A stretch of 14,057 nucleotides of DNA from a virus. The first letter of the stretch is position 1; each line of letters opens with the position of its first letter. The stretch lies in the UHGV virus genome UHGV-0369625; one strand, 5' to 3'. Positions 3,655 through 13,600 of this stretch are shown piece after piece. A program made the translations under genes and the position numbers. The notes under the pieces are model-generated. The model was not told where the DNA came from, did no database searches, and saw nothing but the letters and a program-made list of their open reading frames with translations.

Positions 3655-3873
3655 ATCCTCACCCCGATGTACACGGATGGTGCAATATGTTTGAAAAGAT
3701 CGGAGTCTACGGGGTAGTTTTGACAGCACACGTTGTTCTCAACGGCGCTAAAAAAACATACACATTAAAAATGTGGGTAATTATTTTGAAAGAAAATCAT
3801 ATATAAAATAATAATACGAGAAATGTTTTCATATTTAGTGTACTGTATACGGCCATTTATACAGGAAAAGCCT

Positions 3874-4044
3874 ATGTCAGAACGTAAAGACTCAAAATCA
3901 CGCCGTAATTATCTCGTTAAATGCTCCTGCCCAAACTGCACCCAAGAGTCAGAACACAGTTTTTCAAGAGTACAAAAAGGTGCCCTTTTGATCTGCCCTC
4001 ATTGCAACAAAATATTCCAGACAAATCTTAAAGCTGTAGCCTGA
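3874..4044 (+). CDS. Small zinc-ribbon-like protein, 56 aa (two CxxC pairs: CSCPNC ... CPHC)
   Basis: Internal ATG 3874 is preceded by AGGAAAAG SD; the track ORF starts at ATG 3823 with no SD. May correspond to K-12 YnfU (recall only, not verified). Confidence 0.55.
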   Translation: MSERKDSKSRRNYLVKCSCPNCTQESEHSFSRVQKGALLICPHCNKIFQTNLKAVA

Positions 4045-4126: not shown

Positions 4127-4406
4127 GAGATTGTGGTGCTTTTTGTGGGAGTCATCCACTTACGCACTTTGTTTTGCCATGCCAGCAGTTAGCTTCTGCT
4201 GTAAAACTATTCATGCAGCAAACCTGCACTTCACCACAATGGTTAGCATACTTTTCCTGATTAAGGTTTTGCCAAATATGCTGGCCATTGTTTCATGTAT
4301 TGGACCTCCTTATTTTTATTAAAGAGATCCAATATTCACTACTCTGTCCGTATCTCTACTCAGGCATCAGCCTTCTTCGTTATCGTATACAGACGAGCGA
4401 TGAATT

Positions 4407-4622
4407 TTAATCAGTAATGATGACATTTGCTGCTGCAGGACCTTTAGCACCACTCTCTATAGAGAAGGTAACCTTTTGACCTTCAAATAAGGTTCGATAA
4501 TTATCATTCTGAATCGCAGAAAAATGCACAAACACATCTTTACTACCATCAACAGGAGAAATAAAGCCGAAACCTTTATCAGCGTTAAACCATTTTACTA
4601 AACCAGTCATTTTATTTGACAT
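4407..4622 (-). CDS. cspB: Cold-shock protein CspB (CspA family), 71 aa
   Basis: [23 protein letters not shown]...; ATG 4620-4622 with AAGGAA SD; stop TAA 4407-4409. Confidence 0.95.
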
Positions 4623-4800
4623 TCTACATTCCTTAACTTGAGCCTTTCGGCATAAATGGTTTGCATAACAGAAACGACTTCGTACTTAATTGGAGAGACT
4701 CAAAGAAGGAATAAGTGAATAACACCTGAAATGAGAACTGCTTTAGTAAACTACTTCGTATATCGTCTGTTCTTCAAACCGACGCAATCATTAACGCATA
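4623..4800 (-). promoter_or_regulatory. cspB long 5' UTR with cold-box-like element (boundaries approximate)
   Basis: Minus-strand sequence near 4760-4795 (...GGTTTGAAGAACAGACG...) resembles the cspA cold box, and the block is shared with the cspI leader. Confidence 0.45.
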
Positions 4801-4922: not shown

Positions 4923-5135
4923 TTGTCCCGTAAAATGACAGGAATTGTCAAAACCTTTGACGGCAAAAGCGGCAAGGGTCTTATCACCCCATCCGATGGT
5001 CGTATCGATGTCCAGCTTCATGTTTCAGCGCTCAATCTCCGCGATGCAGAAGAAATTACCACCGGATTACGCGTGGAATTTTGCCGGATAAATGGTCTGC
5101 GTGGCCCTTCAGCTGCCAATGTTTACCTTTCATGA
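4923..5135 (+). CDS. cspF: CspA-family cold-shock-like protein CspF, 70 aa, TTG start
   Basis: Frame begins at TTG 4923 with TAAGGAA SD 7 nt upstream; the next ATG (4935) is too far from the SD. Transcribed divergently from cspB. Confidence 0.85.
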
Positions 5136-5556: not shown

Positions 5557-6309
5557 TTATCTCGTCACCTTCCTCAATTGCGCTTCCGCGTATGCTTCTT
5601 CCTGCCAGCACTTTGTTACCAGTTTACCAATGACGTCCGCATACCCCTTATACCACTGATAATCGGTCAGGTCTGGTACCAGCTTCTGGACATGACGTCG
5701 TGCCAGCGTGGTCGGTAAACGACTAAACCGGTTTCCATTACAACGCCCACAAATCTTATATACCGGTACGCCATGAAACCGGGTTCTTTTTTCATCCAGA
5801 ACAATCCCTTTACCCTTACACCCTCTGCACGCTGTGCTGACTTCGCCCTTACCATGGCAATGCTGACATAGTTCCTTCACCCATTCTTCCTTGATTACAG
5901 ATTCCCCGCGTCTGTAGTGTTTCACCACTTCGCGCAATACATTATAAAATCCCGTACCTGAACAATGCTCACAGCGAGCCTTACTTGCCGCAGACCTGGA
6001 GTAATCAGCAAAGGCAAAACTCACGAGGTAAGGAATAATCTGTAACCGGATTTCTTCACTCAATTTGTTCAATGTCGGGTTATCCAGTGCCATCGCGTAA
6101 TTTAGCAGGCCTTCAATCGCAAACTGAGGGTCCTGAACACCAACTTTTGCCAGAAATAAGGCCAACCCAAGTGGTGCTTTCGACTGCACCATCCCCTGCG
6201 CTGCCATTACATCCGTAATTGTTAAACAACCGGTGCCTGTCGCTGGAGCGTCATCGCTCAATTTTGGAGATTTTGGGGAGTAATATTTTGGTAAGGCTTC
6301 AAGGTTCAT
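5557..6309 (-). CDS. quuQ: Late-gene antiterminator Q (phage 82/21-type Q family), 250 aa
   Basis: ATG 6307-6309 with GGAG SD; the track start at 6339 is TTG. Cys/His-rich zinc-binding region (CEHCSGTG...CQHCHGKG...CRGCKGKG...CGRCNG). Matches Qin QuuQ as recalled. Confidence 0.9.
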   Translation of the reverse strand: MNLEALPKYYSPKSPKLSDDAPATGTGCLTITDVMAAQGMVQSKAPLGLALFLAKVGVQDPQFAIEGLLNYAMALDNPTLNKLSEEIRLQIIPYLVSFAFADYSRSAASKARCEHCSGTGFYNVLREVVKHYRRGESVIKEEWVKELCQHCHGKGEVSTACRGCKGKGIVLDEKRTRFHGVPVYKICGRCNGNRFSRLPTTLARRHVQKLVPDLTDYQWYKGYADVIGKLVTKCWQEEAYAEAQLRKVTR

Positions 6310-6322
6310 GCTCGTTCTCCAC

Positions 6323-7372
6323 TTACGCCAGTACGCCAATTGCCAGCGCGCGATCGATAAAACGAAATATCAGCTCCAGTTGGGAGCCATACTTCTCTTC
6401 AAATGCCACTGTATCCGTATGCAGCTCGTTGTGATGCTTTCTGCACAAAGGCAACACAAAGAGATCATGTGCTTTTGTTCCCATTCCGCCCTGCCCGTGA
6501 CCAATCAGATGATGCGGATCGTCGGCTGGCATACCGCAGCAAGCACACGGCTGTGTCTTAACCCAACGTGTGTATTTCTCCTTAACCCAGCGGCGACGTT
6601 TAGGCAGCTTCATGAAAGATTCCGGAGACTCTGGATCAACGGTGATGCTTACCACCGTCTTTTCCTGTGGTGGTTTTTGTTGCTGGTAGGCGTAAGGCAA
6701 CGGTGCAAGATTTTTTGTGCGTTGTTTCAATATGCTGGTGGCGGTCTGCTCTCCCGGTACGATGTCGCTTTCGCGGTACACCGAGCAGATTTTTTCCGCT
6801 GGTAATCCCAGCGAACGACGCGATACAGCCTCAGGTAGTGCATCCACCACCTGATTGCAGACCGCCCACCAGGATAATTCAGCCAAAGATAATTCCCGCT
6901 CCTGCGTACCGCTTATTGCGTGACGGATGACGTCAATCACCCATGCTGTCAGATTTTGTTGAGCAAGCAGATCCAGTGATTCCGATGTCTGGTCACGCAG
7001 TTGGTTGTCGCAGTGCCAACACAACACCATTGCGCCGGTACCATAACGGTGAATGACTGTTTCAGAGTGATGGTAATCGCCATTAGGCCACTGGCAGGAT
7101 GTAACATGACGTAATAGCCAGTCAGACAATGCGCCAACGCCGCCAGCAGCACGAATCACCCGTTCGTTACTAAAAAACGGCAGCAATGTTTTGTCTTCCA
7201 CCAGCGGCTGGCGAACGGCAGGAACGACTCCGGATGGCAGATTACGCATGCTTTTTGGTTCCGGTTCCACCAGCACTCGAGGATTATGAAATATCTGTAT
7301 GGATTCACGGCCCGGCTTAAGGACCACCAGCCCAAGCTCAGGCACCAGAACAGGTCTAAGTAATACCCGCAC
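6323..7372 (-). CDS. ydfU: DUF968-family prophage protein (YdfU-like) with C-terminal HNH-like motif, 349 aa
   Basis: GTG 7370-7372 preceded by GGAGG SD; the track start GTG 7411 has no SD. C-terminus CACCG...DPHHL...HH..ELH resembles a His-Me finger. Confidence 0.75.
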   Translation of the reverse strand: MRVLLRPVLVPELGLVVLKPGRESIQIFHNPRVLVEPEPKSMRNLPSGVVPAVRQPLVEDKTLLPFFSNERVIRAAGGVGALSDWLLRHVTSCQWPNGDYHHSETVIHRYGTGAMVLCWHCDNQLRDQTSESLDLLAQQNLTAWVIDVIRHAISGTQERELSLAELSWWAVCNQVVDALPEAVSRRSLGLPAEKICSVYRESDIVPGEQTATSILKQRTKNLAPLPYAYQQQKPPQEKTVVSITVDPESPESFMKLPKRRRWVKEKYTRWVKTQPCACCGMPADDPHHLIGHGQGGMGTKAHDLFVLPLCRKHHNELHTDTVAFEEKYGSQLELIFRFIDRALAIGVLA

Positions 7373-8186: not shown

Positions 8187-8342
8187 TTACTCCTCAGGTT
8201 CGTAAGCTGTGAAGACAGCGACCTCCGTCTGGCCGGTTCGGATTCGTACCTCGCAGAGGTCTTTCCTCGTTACCAGTGCCGTCACAATGACGGTTAAACA
8301 GATGACGATCAGGGCGATTAACATCGCCTTTTGCTGCTTCAT
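8187..8342 (-). CDS. hokD: Hok/Gef-family type I toxin, 51 aa (MKQQKAMLIALIVICLTVIVTALVTRKDLCEVRIRTGQTEVAVFTAYEPEE)
   Basis: ATG 8340-8342 with AGGAGAA SD. Single TM helix plus the conserved Hok C-terminus; matches HokD/RelF as recalled. The track ORF extends 19 codons upstream to ATG 8399. No relB/relE upstream. Confidence 0.85.
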   Translation of the reverse strand: MKQQKAMLIALIVICLTVIVTALVTRKDLCEVRIRTGQTEVAVFTAYEPEE

Positions 8343-8578
8343 AGCCTGCTTCTCCTTGCCTTTCGGCACGTAAGAGGCTAACCTAGATTTGCCGTTCATA
8401 GATTGAGCCTCAGATTAATGTTAAGCGTCTTGCAGGACGCGTAATGTTAACTGGGGCTTTTCTCTATCTGCCTTTGGTGTTCATGCCTGAGACAGATAGC
8501 CTCAAGCACCCGCAGCCATTCTACTTAACTCCCGTTACCTCGCCAATATAAAATCAATCAGAAAGGTGATCCATAAAA

Positions 8579-9265
8579 TCACTCCTTCTCTTCTTTTCCG
8601 TAGTGGAGTTGGCCAATTTTGATAAGAGGGCGTCCCTGAGATTTGCGGTGTAGATTGGTATCGCGCAGAGAATACACACAGCCACAATATTCCTGCTGAT
8701 AGAATTTTTCGCGCTTGCTGATTTCAATCATACGGGACGAGCCGCCCTGCTTGCGCCAGTTATAATCCCAGTACACCATACCCGGATAATGCGCAACAGC
8801 TCGCCGCCCACACTCGTTAACCTGCTGCATATTTTTCCAGCGTGAAATGCCCAGTGAACTGCTGATCACACTGAAACCATTTTCAGCAGCGTACAACGCT
8901 GTCCGCTCAAAACGCATGTCAAAACACATGGTACAACGGATCCCCCTCTCAGGCTCCCATTCCATTCCTTTGGCACGTTCAAACCAGTTGTCTGTGTCGT
9001 AATCAGCATCAATAAATGGCACGCCGTGTTGTTCAGCAAAGCGAATATTTTCATCCTTACGAATTAAATACTCTTTCTGAGGATGAATGTTCGGGTTGTA
9101 GAAAAAGATGGTATAGTCGATTCCCGAGGCCTGAAGCGCCTCCATCACTTCACCGGAACATGGAGCACAGCAAGAGTGCAGTAGTAGTTTGTTTGCCCCG
9201 TTTGGGAGCTCCAATTTAGGCCGTTTGAAATCAGCAATAGTCATAAATATTTTTATTGGGGTCAT
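8579..9265 (-). CDS. QueH-like epoxyqueuosine reductase (DUF208 family), 228 aa
   Basis: Motifs [29 protein letters not shown] and EYCGCVYSL match what I recall as QueH hallmarks. ATG 9263-9265 (no clear SD); alternative ATG 9244. Stop TGA 8579-8581. Confidence 0.75.
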
Positions 9266-9418: not shown

Positions 9419-9844
9419 CTAGTAACGTCTAAAATACCTAACATTTCCTTGATAAAATGCCAGTACACGCTGCATAGCTTCGCTCTTCCGGCACTCGCGA
9501 CAGATTATATTCAGGCGCCTGTCGTAGCGGCGTATTTCGCCGTCTGGTAACGACCAGATAAGGTCCGGATCAACCACTGCAGGTTTCTTCACCTTTGCCC
9601 TTGAGAGTTTTTTGCGAGCATTTTGCCAGTCCTTACGCGCCTGTTCAGACGGGAATAACCCGTAACCAGAGTTGTATACATCGCCACTGGCAACCAGCTC
9701 TCTGGCGAGAACACTCATCAGATATCTTGTCGCACCTGTCCTGGCTTCCAGTTGCCGCAACGTCTCGCGACCGCTCAGACGTACAAGTTCAACAACCTGC
9801 CCTTTAATTTTTTCCCGCTCTTCTTGTGTAAATACTTTTGCCAT
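9419..9844 (-). CDS. Hypothetical basic protein, 141 aa, translationally coupled to the upstream DUF1627-like gene
   Basis: ATG 9842-9844 with GGAGG SD; the track start at 9859 is TTG. Lys/Arg-rich; ends ...CRECRK.... No family recognised. Confidence 0.65.
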   Translation of the reverse strand: MAKVFTQEEREKIKGQVVELVRLSGRETLRQLEARTGATRYLMSVLARELVASGDVYNSGYGLFPSEQARKDWQNARKKLSRAKVKKPAVVDPDLIWSLPDGEIRRYDRRLNIICRECRKSEAMQRVLAFYQGNVRYFRRY

Positions 9845-9859
9845 AAGCGCCTCCGGCAA

Positions 9860-10630
9860 TCACTTTTCCGATACAACACGGCGGGAAGAATCAGTAATCT
9901 GTCGAACAATATCCCGGTGCTTGTTCAGCTCCCGCAGCGCGGCGCAGACTCGCTCCCACTTCTGAACATCACTTTTCGCCCTGCGCAGCGCCAGGTTTGC
10001 CCTGCGAAGGGACGGAAAAATCAGCTCATCTGCTTGCGTTTCGGTAAACGATGGCAACGGCTGCACAATGTCCGCCACAGTTTCTGTTTTAATTTCTTCC
10101 TGTGTTGCGGCTTCCCGGACTGGTAACGCAGCACCTGCTGGCTGAGGAAAGGCCTTACCATCACTTTCCGTTACCAGCGCGGCTTTCGGCTCTGCTGGTA
10201 AATTATCGCCCGGCATGCAGTAACGAAATTTACCGTTCTGATTAACGCGTGCCAGCCGCCCCGTTGCGGTTACCACCGCCAGCGTGGAAGCAACCTTGCG
10301 AGTACTGACACCGAACTTACCCGCCAGTTCCTCACACGTTTTAGCCCCATCCTGACCGATAAACTCAATCATCATGTCTGCGGTAACTTTTTGTTCGACC
10401 TCCCCGGTCAGCATATCCTGTGCTTCAGATTTTACTGGCCGCTCTTCGGTTACCCGGGATTCACCTTCGCCAGCCAGAAACCAGGTGTGACCAGTTTTAT
10501 CAACGACGCCTTTTCTTTTGAGTTCCCACAGCTCGTTGACAGCCTCTTCACGACTGATTCCAAGGCGAGCTGCCACCACATGTGAAGAGGCTTTTTTCAG
10601 TGCTTTCAGTGCGTCAGATACGGTTTCCAT
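9860..10630 (-). CDS. Prophage protein with N-terminal winged-helix-like domain (DUF1627-like), 256 aa
   Basis: ATG 10628-10630 with GGAGGAAA SD; begins 21 nt after the DnaC-like stop. Family assignment from recall. Confidence 0.75.
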   Translation of the reverse strand: METVSDALKALKKASSHVVAARLGISREEAVNELWELKRKGVVDKTGHTWFLAGEGESRVTEERPVKSEAQDMLTGEVEQKVTADMMIEFIGQDGAKTCEELAGKFGVSTRKVASTLAVVTATGRLARVNQNGKFRYCMPGDNLPAEPKAALVTESDGKAFPQPAGAALPVREAATQEEIKTETVADIVQPLPSFTETQADELIFPSLRRANLALRRAKSDVQKWERVCAALRELNKHRDIVRQITDSSRRVVSEK

Positions 10631-10651
10631 TAAAATTTCCTCCGGACAAAA

Positions 10652-11398
10652 TTACTTCACAACCCTCATATTGCTGACATTTGGACGCCAGCTATCCCAG
10701 TTAAACGTCACCCATCGACCACCGTTCATGGTCATGCGGTCCATAATCCTCTCACCAAGAAGCGTACTCATTGCGGCATGATTCAGGTTTGTTAACATCC
10801 CGACACTGCACAGTGATGCTGTCCGGCGATCAATTATCTGGTGCAATACCACCTGCTCGTTTTTCGTCTCCCGCTGAACGCCTATTTCATCCAGGACCAG
10901 CAAATCAACCCCGCAAAGCTCCTGTAAAAATTTTTCCCCGGATTTGCCGTTGTCGTAGCTGTCATGCAACACGCTCATGACGTCAGACACGGTGACGATA
11001 ATCACGCTGCGCCCCTTCACCATCAGCCGGTTGCCCATCGCCGCTGCAAGGTGATTTTTCCCGGTGCCGGTTTTACCGCTGAACACAAAATTCGTGCACC
11101 CGGTCATCAGTTCGTCAGCTATGGATTTGGCCTGGCTCAGCGCGTATTTTTGCCCGTCGTTCTGCACCTGATAATTTGCAAACGAGCATTTGCTGTGCAG
11201 AGGCTGGATGCCCGAACGATTCAGGATTTTTTCCACCCGCAACTGGCGATTCTGGCGGTTAATCTCCTCGCTGCGTTTTCGTCCTTCAGCAAGTTGCCAT
11301 TCCCGCCACTCCTCCACCGTCCGGTACGGTGGAACCGACCCCTGTGGTGCAAGTCTGCGAATACGTTCAAGAACCCCAACTGCCGCAATGTTTTTCAT
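10652..11398 (-). CDS. DnaC/IstB-family AAA+ helicase loader (lambda P analogue; YdaV-like), 248 aa
   Basis: Walker A GKTGTGKNHLAAA and Walker B DLLVLDEIG; ATG 11396-11398 lies 7 nt after the O-like stop. Confidence 0.9.
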   Translation of the reverse strand: MKNIAAVGVLERIRRLAPQGSVPPYRTVEEWREWQLAEGRKRSEEINRQNRQLRVEKILNRSGIQPLHSKCSFANYQVQNDGQKYALSQAKSIADELMTGCTNFVFSGKTGTGKNHLAAAMGNRLMVKGRSVIIVTVSDVMSVLHDSYDNGKSGEKFLQELCGVDLLVLDEIGVQRETKNEQVVLHQIIDRRTASLCSVGMLTNLNHAAMSTLLGERIMDRMTMNGGRWVTFNWDSWRPNVSNMRVVK

Positions 11399-11404
11399 GA
11401 CACG

Positions 11405-12367
11405 TCACCCCCTGAATCCCGGCGGTATTTCAGTGTCCGGTTCAGAAATGTGATTCACGCAACGCTGCGCAGGCGAACGCCCCAGGCGGATAACCAGTTC
11501 ATCCCATTTTTCCCGGAGTTTTGCCGGACTCATGATGTTTTTTACCCAGAACGAATCCCGCTGGAGACGCCCAAACATTTCACAAATTTGTCTGTGAGTT
11601 CTGCCATCCAGCATCCGCATTGTGCGAACGTCATTGGCCCATGCTGTCCAGTTGGGTTCTTTCGGTCTAGTGATCTCGCCATCATAGCTGGCCGCCTGCT
11701 CGTAAAGACTCACGATTCGTCCCCAGATCCACTGTGCGCACACCAAATCTTCCTGACTTCCCCACTGGCGTTTTTTCGCACTGAACACAACCGCGTCAGG
11801 GTGTCGGGTTAAAAAATCCTGTTCAGCCGTCTGCGGGTCCGGTTGCGAAGCGTCCGGACAAGAAGATCTTTTATCTGACGGATCAGGTTTTAATACTGAC
11901 GGATCGGGGTCAATCATCGCCCCCCTAATCGGCAGTTTTTTATCAACAGTTGATCCATCAAAATTTGACGGGTCAACCGTTGAGGGGTCAATATTTGACG
12001 GGTCAACTGTTAACGGGTCATTTTTTGCCGGGCTAATTTTTCTTTTCGGTTTATATGACTCACGCGCCGCCGCCGCAGCTGCTTCGAGTTTTTCCACATT
12101 AAGCCGATAGATATTGCTTACATTACGCCCACCGACCTTACGCTCTTCCTTCGTCAGCCAGCCCTCTTTCGCCAGTTCTGCAATAGCCGATTTCACTGTG
12201 GATTCACTTCTTGCACCGATCTGACGCCGGATAGTTTCAATGGCAGGCCATGACACGCCCTCGTCATTGCTGTAGTCTGCAAGACGGGCCATAACCGCCA
12301 CCCTGGATAAGATCATGCCGGTGAAGGCGCACCCTTCCCAGACAAGACCATGAAGCTTGCTGCTCAT
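11405..12367 (-). CDS. Replication initiator (O-like / YdaU-like) with N-terminal HTH and internal origin iterons, 320 aa
   Basis: ATG 12365-12367; the track start at 12382 is GTG. N-terminal MARLADYSNDEGVSWPAIETIRRQIG... HTH-like. Repetitive peptide DPSNIDPSTVDPSNFDGSTVD is encoded by the DNA iterons. Confidence 0.85.
   Translation of the reverse strand: MSSKLHGLVWEGCAFTGMILSRVAVMARLADYSNDEGVSWPAIETIRRQIGARSESTVKSAIAELAKEGWLTKEERKVGGRNVSNIYRLNVEKLEAAAAAARESYKPKRKISPAKNDPLTVDPSNIDPSTVDPSNFDGSTVDKKLPIRGAMIDPDPSVLKPDPSDKRSSCPDASQPDPQTAEQDFLTRHPDAVVFSAKKRQWGSQEDLVCAQWIWGRIVSLYEQAASYDGEITRPKEPNWTAWANDVRTMRMLDGRTHRQICEMFGRLQRDSFWVKNIMSPAKLREKWDELVIRLGRSPAQRCVNHISEPDTEIPPGFRG
11897..12022. repeat. 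Origin-of-replication iterons (at least 4 direct repeats of about 13 bp at 15-bp spacing), followed by an AT-rich tract to about 12060
   Basis: TTGACGGGTCAAC (11965-11977), TTGAGGGGTCAAT (11980-11992), TTGACGGGTCAAC (11995-12007), TTAACGGGTCATT (12010-12022), plus a degenerate copy GGGGTCAAT at 11906-11914; then ttttttgccgggctaatttttcttttcggtttat. Confidence 0.75.
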
Positions 12368-12389
12368 AAAACCCCCGAACACCGTGCTT

Positions 12390-12815
12390 TTAGTGCATCA
12401 CCACAGCATTCCCTGCCGGGCCGCCGCGATTCATCTGGTCATACAAAACAACCGCTGACGCAACAAAATCATCGACATCCTTCACCAGCCGATCCCTCCG
12501 TTCGACGATCTCACGGTAATATTCAGAACTGTGGCTGCGCATACGGGCCACCAGCAAAGGCGGCATCGCCTTTTCGATCGCCGGTAACAGAGCCTGCATT
12601 TTTTCAACAGCATCAGGGGTGTCTTTCTCTACCCAGCGGAAAATTTTCTGGGTATTGCGAGCCAGGGCTTCCGGATGGCTGTCGTCATACAGTTCTGGGA
12701 ACGTCATACCCAACTCAAAATAAGCCTGGGTTATTCCAGCTGCTGGAACTTTTTCGCCATCAGGACGCGCCCAGGCATTCATCGCCATGCGGATGTGTTC
12801 ATGCTTGATTTTCAT
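12390..12815 (-). CDS. YdaT-like protein (reported functional analogue of lambda CII), 141 aa
   Basis: ATG 12813-12815 with AGGAG SD; lies between cro-like and O-like genes as ydaT does in Rac; identity from recall. Confidence 0.75.
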   Translation of the reverse strand: MKIKHEHIRMAMNAWARPDGEKVPAAGITQAYFELGMTFPELYDDSHPEALARNTQKIFRWVEKDTPDAVEKMQALLPAIEKAMPPLLVARMRSHSSEYYREIVERRDRLVKDVDDFVASAVVLYDQMNRGGPAGNAVVMH

Positions 12816-13080
12816 GAATCAAGCTCCTAGAAAGTGGTTGTGTTAACGTTTTGGTATCTTCCAGCTCGGGCCAAATATTCATCCAATCAAAAGGCCTTAG
12901 TTGCTGACGTGTAACTTCACCATTACTGGCTCGCTCAATAAGGACACATAACGATGCCCCTAACACTTGACCTTTACTCAATGCCTTTCTTAGATAACCG
13001 ATGCTGGTACCACACTCGCATGCAAACATACGCTGTTCATCTGACGAAAGAGAATTGAGAAATATTCTTAATTCTTCCAT
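12799..13080 (-). CDS. Cro-like / YdaS-like HTH regulator, 93 aa
   Basis: ATG 13078-13080 with AAGGAG SD; motif IERASNGEVTRQQLRP.DW resembles YdaS; first gene of the rightward operon, divergent from the repressor. Confidence 0.8.
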   Translation of the reverse strand: MEELRIFLNSLSSDEQRMFACECGTSIGYLRKALSKGQVLGASLCVLIERASNGEVTRQQLRPFDWMNIWPELEDTKTLTQPLSRSLIHENQA

Positions 13081-13104: not shown

Positions 13105-13152
13105 AAGAATACCCACAGGTAAACAAAAGTCAATACCCACAGGTTGTTTACC
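13105..13152. promoter_or_regulatory. Candidate OR operator/promoter region between cro-like and repressor genes
   Basis: Direct repeat AATACCCACAGGT at 13108-13120 and 13132-13144, with GTAAAC/GTTTAC half-site-like elements. Candidate -35 TTGACT and -10 on the minus strand for cro; candidate -35 TTTACC / -10 TATTAT on the plus strand ending just before the repressor ATG (leaderless). Confidence 0.5.
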
Positions 13153-13180
13153 TTGCGGTAATCGCATCTATTATTTACCT

Positions 13181-13600
13181 ATGGACAAATATGAATTTAG
13201 ACGACAGCAACTCATCAAAATTCGTGATGAGAAATGCGATGGTAAAGCGGTTAACGTGGCCAGAAAGATCGGGCGCGAGCCTTCTTATGTATCAAGAATG
13301 TTGTACCCAGAGGGGAAAAAGGGAAAAAAACGGATCGCTGATGATATGGTGGAGATTATCGAAGAGTCCTTTGGGTTACCCCGGGGATGGATGGATGGTA
13401 TCGTTTCATCATCAACGAACACAGCCTCCAGTTATGAAACAAGGGTTCTAACGCCACGACAACGTATTTTTTTAGATCTCTTAGACGAACTGCCAGAAAG
13501 TGAAGCGGATAAATTATTAAAAACTCTTGAAGAGAAAAAACAGTATTACAATATGATCTACGAAGAAATCCGTAAAAAGAAAGCACAAAACGCATCATAG
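13181..13600 (+). CDS. Putative prophage repressor (CI-like HTH protein), 139 aa
   Basis: Divergent from the cro-like gene; HTH-like segment KAVNVARKIGREPSYVSRMLY; flanked on both sides by operator-like repeats; no SD upstream of ATG 13181. Confidence 0.7.
   Translation: MDKYEFRRQQLIKIRDEKCDGKAVNVARKIGREPSYVSRMLYPEGKKGKKRIADDMVEIIEESFGLPRGWMDGIVSSSTNTASSYETRVLTPRQRIFLDLLDELPESEADKLLKTLEEKKQYYNMIYEEIRKKKAQNAS

Follow-up and report, generated by a model that had tools for sequence, protein, structure and literature searches.

A DUF1627/YdaW gene and a probable long-form homolog of lambda Ren at the end of the replication module of a Rac-type prophage

In the 14,057-nucleotide (nt) stretch of the UHGV virus genome UHGV-0369625 that we analysed (hereafter the window), two adjacent genes of a lambdoid prophage segment follow the helicase-loader gene: gene A (256 amino acids (aa), DUF1627/YdaW family) and gene B (141 aa, DUF977/LygF family). 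The explanation that fits best, to which we give a probability of roughly 60%, is that they are the last genes of a lambdoid replication module of the Rac type, with a Ren-like B and an adaptor-like A. Their products are most likely dispensable early accessory proteins of this module. Gene identity, homology, operon position, domain layout and co-occurrence could be read from the sequences, alignments and models; from these we infer every functional step given below. Gene B is very probably a true homolog of the lambda protein Ren.

Gene B scored 97.7 bits against the Pfam family DUF977 (PF06163, E=7.7e-28; gathering score 22.1 bits), its residues 1-135 covering positions 1-133 of the 134 in the profile, and it matched phrog_142, annotated as 'Ren-like exclusion protein', over its full length (E=4.6e-46). 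Lambda Ren (NP_040633) also matches phrog_142, along almost its whole length (E=1.6e-41), but belongs to no Pfam family, and so stands outside DUF977. A profile-profile comparison with hhalign joined the two: an alignment of DUF977 (members 32-92% identical to B) and one of Ren (members 63-94% identical to lambda Ren) matched with a probability of 97.2% (E=4.5e-11) over 83 columns. Because this match takes in the winged helix as well as the C-terminal motif, we read gene B as a long-form Ren homolog. Compared directly by BLASTP, B and Ren align in the C-terminal motif only, where aa 112-131 of B correspond to aa 73-92 of lambda Ren (NIICRECRKSEAMQRVLAFY and NLVFKECRQSAAMKRVLAVY, respectively; 12 of 20 residues identical, 60%; E=5e-7). 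The original prediction, made from the letters of the window, had held that no function could be assigned to either gene from sequence, and had named homology to Ren as a finding that would speak against it. For B these matches have overtaken that view.

The two proteins agree in their N-terminal winged helix and in the C-terminal motif N-x-[I/V]-[C/F]-x-E-C-R-x-S-x-x-M-x-R-V-L-A-x-Y, both are small and tightly packed against the preceding gene, and both genes close the block of replication genes in the pR operon (O, P, ren in lambda). They differ in length (141 aa in B, 96 aa in lambda Ren), as B has a basic helix and a linker inserted at aa 67-110. In lambda, P and ren share an ATGA overlap; gene B instead has 15 nt, including a GGAGG of its own, between itself and the upstream gene, which is a DUF1627 or O-like gene rather than P. 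The relationship between B and Ren is already encoded in PHROGs and in some GenBank records; relatives of B in phage records are named LygF, DUF977 or 'Ren-like exclusion protein'. LygF/DUF977 proteins are encoded in Salmonella and E. coli prophages; those annotated as LygF in phage records are 70-95% identical to gene B and show no substantive difference from it, and a search for 'LygF' returned irrelevant matches only, the label having no functional study in the literature searched. The explicit bridge between DUF977 and Ren at the profile level is missing from Pfam and is a small addition of the present analysis.

The start codon of gene B is the ATG at 9842-9844. Initiation at a TTG five codons further upstream would lengthen the product to 146 aa, but the Prokaryotic Genome Annotation Pipeline (PGAP) likewise chooses the 141-aa form. 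The product is very basic, as predicted (isoelectric point (pI) 10.1; 30 K+R and 17 D+E). In the AlphaFold2 (AF2) model, aa 7-83 are confident (predicted local distance difference test score (pLDDT) 86-94) and comprise the winged helix-turn-helix (HTH) and the basic helix. A Foldseek search of this model against PDB and BFVD found generic winged-helix regulators only (nearest folds of the GntR, MarR, ArsR, AspA and IclR types) and no match at E<=0.001. Seven residues are invariant in the DUF977 alignment (N112, C115, C118, S121, M124, R126 and F130), and motif residues are still invariant across members only 32-65% identical to gene B. The original prediction had placed a CRECRK Cys pair at the end of the protein; C115 and C118 exist, but they lie 23 residues from the C-terminus, inside the conserved motif. 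We rejected a CxxC zinc or redox site in gene B, which has these two Cys only, and the DUF977 alignment holds no second conserved Cys or His pair for a metal site. Since the first Cys of B is Phe in the Ren family, the wider family does not share such a site.

Zα domains contact Z-form nucleic acid through an Asn and a Tyr of the recognition helix and a Trp of the wing (with Pro-Pro). The best PDB sequence matches of gene B were the Zα domains of PKZ (E=7e-4), with those of E3L and ADAR1 also at the top. A Zα assignment was nevertheless rejected, as the Asn and Tyr of the PKZ segment VNRHLY align to Ser44 and Arg48 of B (family consensus Arg/Arg) and the wing Trp is missing.

Both reading frames lie on the minus strand at the predicted coordinates. 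They immediately follow the loader, where lambda has ren and the first nin genes, and belong to a compact early operon with intergenic gaps of 6, 21 and 15 nt from the O-like gene to B. They are real genes and not chance open reading frames, as judged from their Pfam scores (328 bits for A, 97.7 bits for B). PGAP calls exactly these two frames in a genome with identical DNA, and an Rfam search found no overlapping RNA genes in the A/B region. The early operon of the window runs on the minus strand, and the order of its early region is repressor, cro/YdaS-like, YdaT-like, O-like, DnaC-like, A and B (Table 1); 3' of gene B follow QueH, hok/sok, DUF968, Q and the lysis genes. A pR-like promoter candidate would drive the cro-like, YdaT-like, O-like and DnaC-like genes together with A and B, and the consensus scan found no further minus-strand promoter-like or terminator-like site from there down to 8546. 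Given the short gene spacings and the lack of intervening promoter-like or terminator-like sites, early co-expression of A and B with the replication genes is a reasonable inference, in line with what had been suggested.

In the coding direction, the junction between the two genes reads TGA-ttgccGGAGGcgctt-ATG, with the predicted 15 nt and GGAGG between the stop of A and the start of B. It is identical in 105 of 125 related loci, while the 15-nt spacing is found in 121 of the 125 and the spacing is 14-16 nt in divergent relatives. The proposed translational coupling is suggested by this proximity only. B has a strong Shine-Dalgarno sequence of its own, and the junction RNA does not exceed shuffled controls in structure (z=+1.1), so a structure-dependent coupling was rejected. 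In one related locus, L119, B sits behind a different gene and starts with GTG after AGGAGG.

The two genes share a reading frame in the window allele, and among database proteins two from metagenomic contigs appear as A-B 'fusions'. In P0122 the TGA is read as Gly and Met1 of B has become Arg, and P0124 contains frameshifts. As each comes from a single contig and carries extra mutations or frameshifts, both are probably artefacts. Programmed read-through of the TGA was rejected, because loci with spacers of 14 or 16 nt do not preserve the frame.

Gene A starts with the ATG at 10628-10630, 21 nt past the stop of the DnaC-like gene. It is a DUF1627 protein, as predicted: the match to PF07789 reached 328 bits (E=9.8e-99; gathering score 28.1 bits), with aa 91-245 covering all 155 profile positions. 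It also matches phrog_630, a family of unknown function, over its full length (E=9e-133). PGAP names an identical sequence 'DUF1627 domain-containing protein', and relatives in phage records are called YdaW or DUF1627. The protein is near neutral overall (pI 7.7), with acidic stretches. An N-terminal winged-helix-like segment and an acidic middle had been described in the original prediction; the first HTH unit and the acidic linkers agree with this, while a second HTH unit (aa 84-137) and a long C-terminal helix had been missed.

The first HTH unit of gene A consists of helices at aa 4-11, 16-23 and 27-39 (pLDDT about 64-76); aa 18-48 have a sub-threshold match to Pfam HTH_Crp_2, and phrog_16668 matches aa 1-56. 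The linker that follows, present in five alleles of varying length, has pLDDT values of 22-29 in 10-residue blocks over aa 51-80 and a net charge of -4 over aa 61-80. The second unit, with helices at aa 84-94, 99-106 and 110-123, is present in two alleles and has sub-threshold matches to Pfam HTH_PafC, FeoC and HTH_11, together with PHROG matches to phrog_142 (E=3e-6) and phrog_1687 (MarR, E=1.4e-7). The second linker (pLDDT 30-43) again carries net negative charge. The C-terminal part, which contains VQKWERVCAALREL, is modelled as a short helix (aa 197-203) followed by a long one (aa 206-255; pLDDT 72-81 over aa 211-250), and phrog_1888 and phrog_29124 match this region. It is the best-conserved part of gene A and is kept in all alleles, including the 59%-identical protein of 75/02 Stx.

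The two HTH units did not align with each other in BLASTP, and an internal duplication in gene A was rejected accordingly. Likewise, A and B could not be demonstrated to be paralogs sharing a Ren-type winged helix, as hhalign gave probabilities of 32% for the second HTH unit of A with B and 3% for A with Ren. ScpB and DDRGK1/UFL1 resemble gene A in carrying two winged-helix/HTH units per chain and are among its non-significant fold matches, and DDRGK is also a sub-threshold Pfam match. Plasmid Rep-type initiators presumably offer a further parallel in their two-winged-helix layout. Unlike such tandem winged-helix proteins, gene A has long disordered linkers between its HTH units and then a long helix. 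The likeness is one of layout only and does not speak for homology.

DUF1627 DNA was detected in 2,767 of 5,426 complete E. coli genomes (51%, up to 9 copies per genome) and DUF977 DNA in 4,040 of them (74%, up to 5 copies). The DUF977 family is small: its members in a set of 1.84 billion representative proteins fall into 102 clusters at 50% identity. Among species representatives DUF1627 was seen only in Escherichia (3 loci), in a scan whose narrow search patterns sampled its breadth beyond that genus poorly.

Conservation of the pair, whose absence had been named as a second argument against the original prediction, is partial. DUF977 lies 15 nt downstream in all 77 informative loci picked by close DUF1627 relatives, loci that are 96-100% identical and hence not independent. 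About one third of close DUF977 loci lack DUF1627. In 23 IMG/VR loci selected by DUF977, which include three N-terminal types of the O-like protein, and in phage HannyBb, DUF977 comes straight after the O-like gene, loader and DUF1627 both being absent. The 80 loci picked by a divergent DUF1627 (PPompW type) divide into 52 after a DnaC-like loader and 28 after a short lambda-P-like loader (PF06992, phrog_109), and DUF977 is next in only 47 of the 80. After dereplication, a loader lies upstream of DUF1627 in 87 of 87 contexts (64 DnaC-like, 23 P-like), whereas DUF977 lies downstream in 67 of the 83 that are informative and is missing from the other 16; DUF1627 can also precede genes unrelated to DUF977. 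Conversely, DUF1627 is the next gene in 76 of 76 new loci selected by their loader, a set of low diversity. Each of the two genes is carried by 24 phage records, with both present in only about 12.

Four gene orders were found: O>DnaC>A>B, O>P-like>A>B, O>P-like>A>other and O>B. The A-B pair is thus frequent, not obligatory; the constant neighbour of A is the helicase loader, and B behaves, like ren, as a unit of its own that closes the replication module. Locus L119 illustrates this modularity, as it has the same 3' end of the O-like gene as the window, a near-identical DUF977 and identical downstream DNA, and lacks the 1.55 kb that hold DnaC and DUF1627. The rule that DUF1627 follows the loader and the presence/absence polymorphism of this cassette are small additions of the present analysis. 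A pairing of particular A modules with one loader type was rejected, as the HTH alleles mix freely with both.

The Rac prophage of K-12 and phage Rac-SA53 provide named relatives of gene A in PF07789. The ydaW pseudogene of the K-12 Rac prophage lies directly after the DnaC-like loader ydaV; its product is 55% identical to A over aa 1-154 and is cut after about 151 aa by an internal deletion of Rac. The full-length YdaW of Rac-SA53 is 65% identical to A and has lygF/DUF977 downstream, as in the window, but follows a short P-like loader instead of a DnaC-like one. An E. coli Rac-type early region (dicA, ydaT, O-like, P-like, DUF1627, hok) was also found in L166 (PP818812.1, 'Actinobacillus phage vB_Apl-pPE4'), with 78% protein and 84% DNA identity to the window; its attribution to Actinobacillus pleuropneumoniae looks doubtful.

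The homology and the position of B suggest how it may act. Lambda ren is co-translated with O and P according to the supplement of bioRxiv 10.1101/2021.04.19.439022. For heteroimmune lambda, the same preprint reports poor growth of ren mutants on Rex+ lysogens and suppressors that map to O and P. It further reports that RexB interacts with Ren in a yeast two-hybrid assay, and that RexA and RexB interact with Ren and O in a bacterial two-hybrid assay; its authors describe the role of Ren as unidentified and probably linked to replication. Ren is non-essential for plaque formation, as stated in PMC10695390. By analogy, B would be a dispensable early protein that works like Ren: it would associate with the phage replication-initiation machinery through its C-terminal helix, perhaps bind DNA through its winged helix, and enable phage replication in hosts with Rex-type exclusion systems. 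We put such an exclusion-escape role at somewhat less than even odds. The accessory function in anti-defence or superinfection exclusion that had been guessed for both genes therefore fits Ren genetics (escape from Rex) in the case of B, and nothing speaks for or against it in the case of A.

Gene A would be a separate, optional module immediately after the helicase-loader gene and not an obligate partner of B. Its conserved long C-terminal helix probably mediates oligomerisation, and the protein may act as a flexible, multivalent adaptor or DNA-binding accessory at the loader or initiator step. This role, suggested by the domain layout and the invariable position after the loader, is tentative, and we consider it rather doubtful.

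Several observations weigh against the reading of A and B as accessory proteins of the replication module. B differs from Ren by an insertion of about 45 residues and a second Cys (C115, Phe in Ren), with overall identity at about 27%, and the region of the Ren motif is modelled with low confidence (pLDDT 40-65). The AF2 model of gene A is weak overall (mean pLDDT 51), although its layout is clear, and no significant fold or sequence match to solved structures was obtained with Foldseek or in PDB (best fold E=0.1). The rule that DUF1627 follows the loader rests on closely related Escherichia prophages, the HTH alleles of A occur with both loader types, and the adjacency of loader and DUF1627 could reflect the placement of recombination breakpoints rather than function. 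To say that B works like Ren transfers a phenotype by analogy, not a mechanism; no Rex-like genes are visible in the window, and the functional steps proposed for A and B derive from sequence and not from experiments with the window proteins.

One or both proteins may instead be ordinary sequence-specific transcription regulators that tune the lysis-lysogeny decision or the nin-like region by operator binding through their winged helices, which we regard as unlikely. Winged-helix/HTH units are present in both, regulators of the GntR, MarR, ArsR and IclR types are the nearest folds, the 'MarR family' phrog_1687 matches lambda Ren (E=1.5e-10) as well as, weakly, A, and K-12 YdaW appears among the putative transcription factors of unknown function listed in PMC9308461. 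However, all Pfam HTH matches are below the cut-offs, every fold match has an E-value of 0.003 or worse, and neither protein has a ligand-binding or effector domain or a classical dimerisation domain. The consensus scan found no promoter belonging to the pair itself, and no operator-like inverted or direct repeats lie in or beside it, the only such repeats being at the cI/cro-like switch. Ren genetics, moreover, concerns replication and Rex, not transcription.

That A and B are dedicated anti-defence factors unrelated to replication, neutralising abortive-infection toxins or taking over the host, appears quite unlikely. The genes lie in an accessory early region and Ren itself counters an exclusion system. 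In addition, K-12 YdaW (the N-terminal 151 aa of the DUF1627 protein) is reported as a blocker of the retron-Sen2 toxin RcaT in the overexpression screen of bioRxiv 10.1101/2020.06.22.160242. This is a single screen match obtained with a protein only 55% identical to A, however, and other HTH proteins (dicC, mhpR) were also blockers there; we suspect that the block is indirect, through expression of the plasmid-borne toxin. In PADLOC-DB, A matches the winged-helix parts of Csa3/CARF models weakly (E about 1e-3), which we regard as noise, and B has no match, so membership in a defence or toxin-antitoxin system was rejected for both. Neither protein contains a toxicity or takeover domain, and the strict position after the loader, together with the Ren suppressors in O and P, points to the replication machinery.

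The two lines could in principle meet in a 'replication-module guard' formed by DUF1627/YdaW and the Ren homolog, though we consider this a long shot. If it were true, proteins encoded next to the initiator and loader would shield these, or their replication intermediates, from abortive-infection sensors, Ren acting against Rex-type systems and YdaW against others such as retron toxin-antitoxin modules, a step suggested by the blocking of RcaT by the K-12 YdaW fragment in one screen. The adjacency of loader and DUF1627 would then be a trigger-plus-blocker pair, comparable to recE-racC in the same prophage family.

A closer tie to replication would exist if gene A were an essential cofactor of the phage helicase loader for DnaB delivery at the Rac-type origin, that is, a core replication protein. 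We see only a slim chance of this. The immediate succession of loader and A in all 87 dereplicated contexts and all 76 loader-selected loci agrees with it, as do the absence of A from the 23 IMG/VR loci and phage HannyBb, which have an O-like gene but no loader, and the joint gain or loss of DnaC and A between L119 and the window. The sampled loci are closely related and not independent, however, and the lambda P loader works without any DUF1627 gene. A accompanies two unrelated loader families with freely mixed alleles, which argues against a specific protein-protein fit, and DUF1627 is apparently restricted to Escherichia and Shigella, whereas DnaC-like phage loaders are far more widespread. 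That both genes are decaying, functionless remnants of a cryptic prophage, as the mosaic window and the truncated K-12 Rac copy might suggest, is hardly credible, given intact reading frames conserved in thousands of genomes, families present in isolated plaque-forming or inducible phages (e.g. Rac-SA53, 75/02 Stx and HannyBb) and motif residues that stay invariant among divergent members.

A and B belong to catalogued families of lambdoid prophages, and many genomes contain annotated genes identical to them; the pair has little weight as a discovery, beyond making DUF977 readable as a long form of lambda Ren. Read in this way, DUF977 would tie thousands of prophage genes to the 45-year-old question of what Ren does at the interface of replication and Rex. 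DUF1627/YdaW travels with the loader of either type and not with Ren, which gives a testable handle on a blank family. Natural variants that differ only by the DnaC+DUF1627 cassette, such as the window and L119, are ready material for experiments.

Table 1. Features of the early region of the window, with positions in window coordinates unless another locus is named
Feature	Position	Strand	Basis
Gene B, 141 aa, DUF977/LygF, probable long-form Ren homolog	9419-9844	-	PF06163; phrog_142; hhalign against Ren
Gene B C-terminal Ren motif, aa 112-131, NIICRECRKSEAMQRVLAFY, including the Cys pair	9452-9511	-	BLASTP against Ren
Gene B basic helix, aa 67-83, EQARKDWQNARKKLSRA, absent from lambda Ren	9596-9646	-	AF2 pLDDT about 86-92; gap in Ren alignment
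Gene B winged HTH, aa 7-65	9650-9826	-	AF2 pLDDT 90-94 for most
A-B spacer, 15 nt, GGAGG at 9850-9854, 5 nt before the ATG of B	9845-9859	-	Sequence
Gene A, 256 aa, DUF1627/YdaW family	9860-10630	-	Open reading frame; Pfam and PHROG matches
Gene A C-terminal long helix, aa 197-255 (LRRAK..VQKWERVCAALRELNKHRD)	9866-10042	-	AF2
Gene A linker 2, aa 138-196, Pro/Ala/Glu-rich, predicted disordered (from about aa 124)	10043-10219	-	AF2
Gene A HTH unit 2, aa 84-137, start of the Pfam DUF1627 region	10220-10381	-	AF2
Gene A acidic linker 1, aa 51-83, predicted disordered	10382-10480	-	AF2, charge
Gene A HTH unit 1, aa 4-50, three helices and short hairpin	10481-10621	-	AF2
GGAGG Shine-Dalgarno of gene A, 8 nt upstream of the ATG	10639-10643	-	Sequence
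DnaC-like helicase loader	10652-11398	-	NCBIfam PRK12377 E=1.4e-152; phrog_50
DnaC+DUF1627 cassette, presence/absence	Window 9860-11398 vs L119:3840-4560		Clean polymorphism
O-like replication initiator, holds the putative origin	11405-12382 (PGAP start 12367)	-	phrog_391 E=2e-115
YdaT-like gene	12390-12815	-	
cro/YdaS-like gene	12799-13080	-	
pR-like promoter candidate, flanked by operator-like repeats	13106-13133	-	Consensus scan
Repressor	13181-13600	+	

Upstream of the pair, about six tandem 15-nt iterons (TCAACnGTTGAnGGG, partly palindromic) lie at 11943-12032 inside the O-like gene, where they coincide with DPS/VDPSN peptide repeats of the O-like protein; they are probably the prophage replication origin, as in the lambda O gene. 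The C-terminus of the O-like protein (11405-11470) shares the ending RCVNHISEPD(T/N)EIPPGFRG with the O-like proteins of the loci L165 and L166 despite different N-terminal types, and this ending weakly resembles that of the primosomal protein DnaT. A Pfam DnaT DNA-binding domain is present in the O-like proteins of PPompW and pPE4. These DnaT-like features suggest that direct recruitment of the host primosome may take place in modules without a loader. Between the divergent repressor and cro-like genes (13107-13163), two direct copies of AATACCCACAGGT and an inverted repeat overlap promoter-like hexamers of both strands and are probably the immunity operators.

Directly 3' of DUF977, the minus strand encodes a homolog of the epoxyqueuosine reductase QueH (8579-9265; PF02677, E=1e-65). 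The succession of DUF977 and QueH recurs in many related prophage loci, with a tRNA-modification enzyme as prophage cargo. It is followed in the nin-like region by a type I toxin-antitoxin system (8187-8511, minus strand), which comprises an open reading frame of the hok toxin family and a sok antitoxin RNA (Rfam, 110 bits). The Q-type antiterminator (5557-6339, minus strand; PF03589) contains a zinc-finger segment of the DnaJ type, CXXCXGXG (36 bits, Pfam cut-off 32.7).

Three cold-shock genes of the CspA family (1496-1881 and 4391-4783 on the minus strand, 4923-5135 on the plus strand) flank the lysis cassette as in Qin, and two of them have full-length cspA thermoregulator 5' untranslated regions (Rfam, 113 and 159 bits). 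A 73-aa open reading frame on the plus strand (3823-4044), located between the holin region and a csp gene, has two CxxC pairs (CPNC...CPHC) and appears zinc-ribbon-like. The window as a whole is a mosaic, with an early region identical to a Rac-like prophage integrated at ompW (AR_0013) and a late region resembling Qin (ydfU, ydfT, rrrQ), and at least 80% of it occurs in one place in only one of the 5,426 complete genomes.

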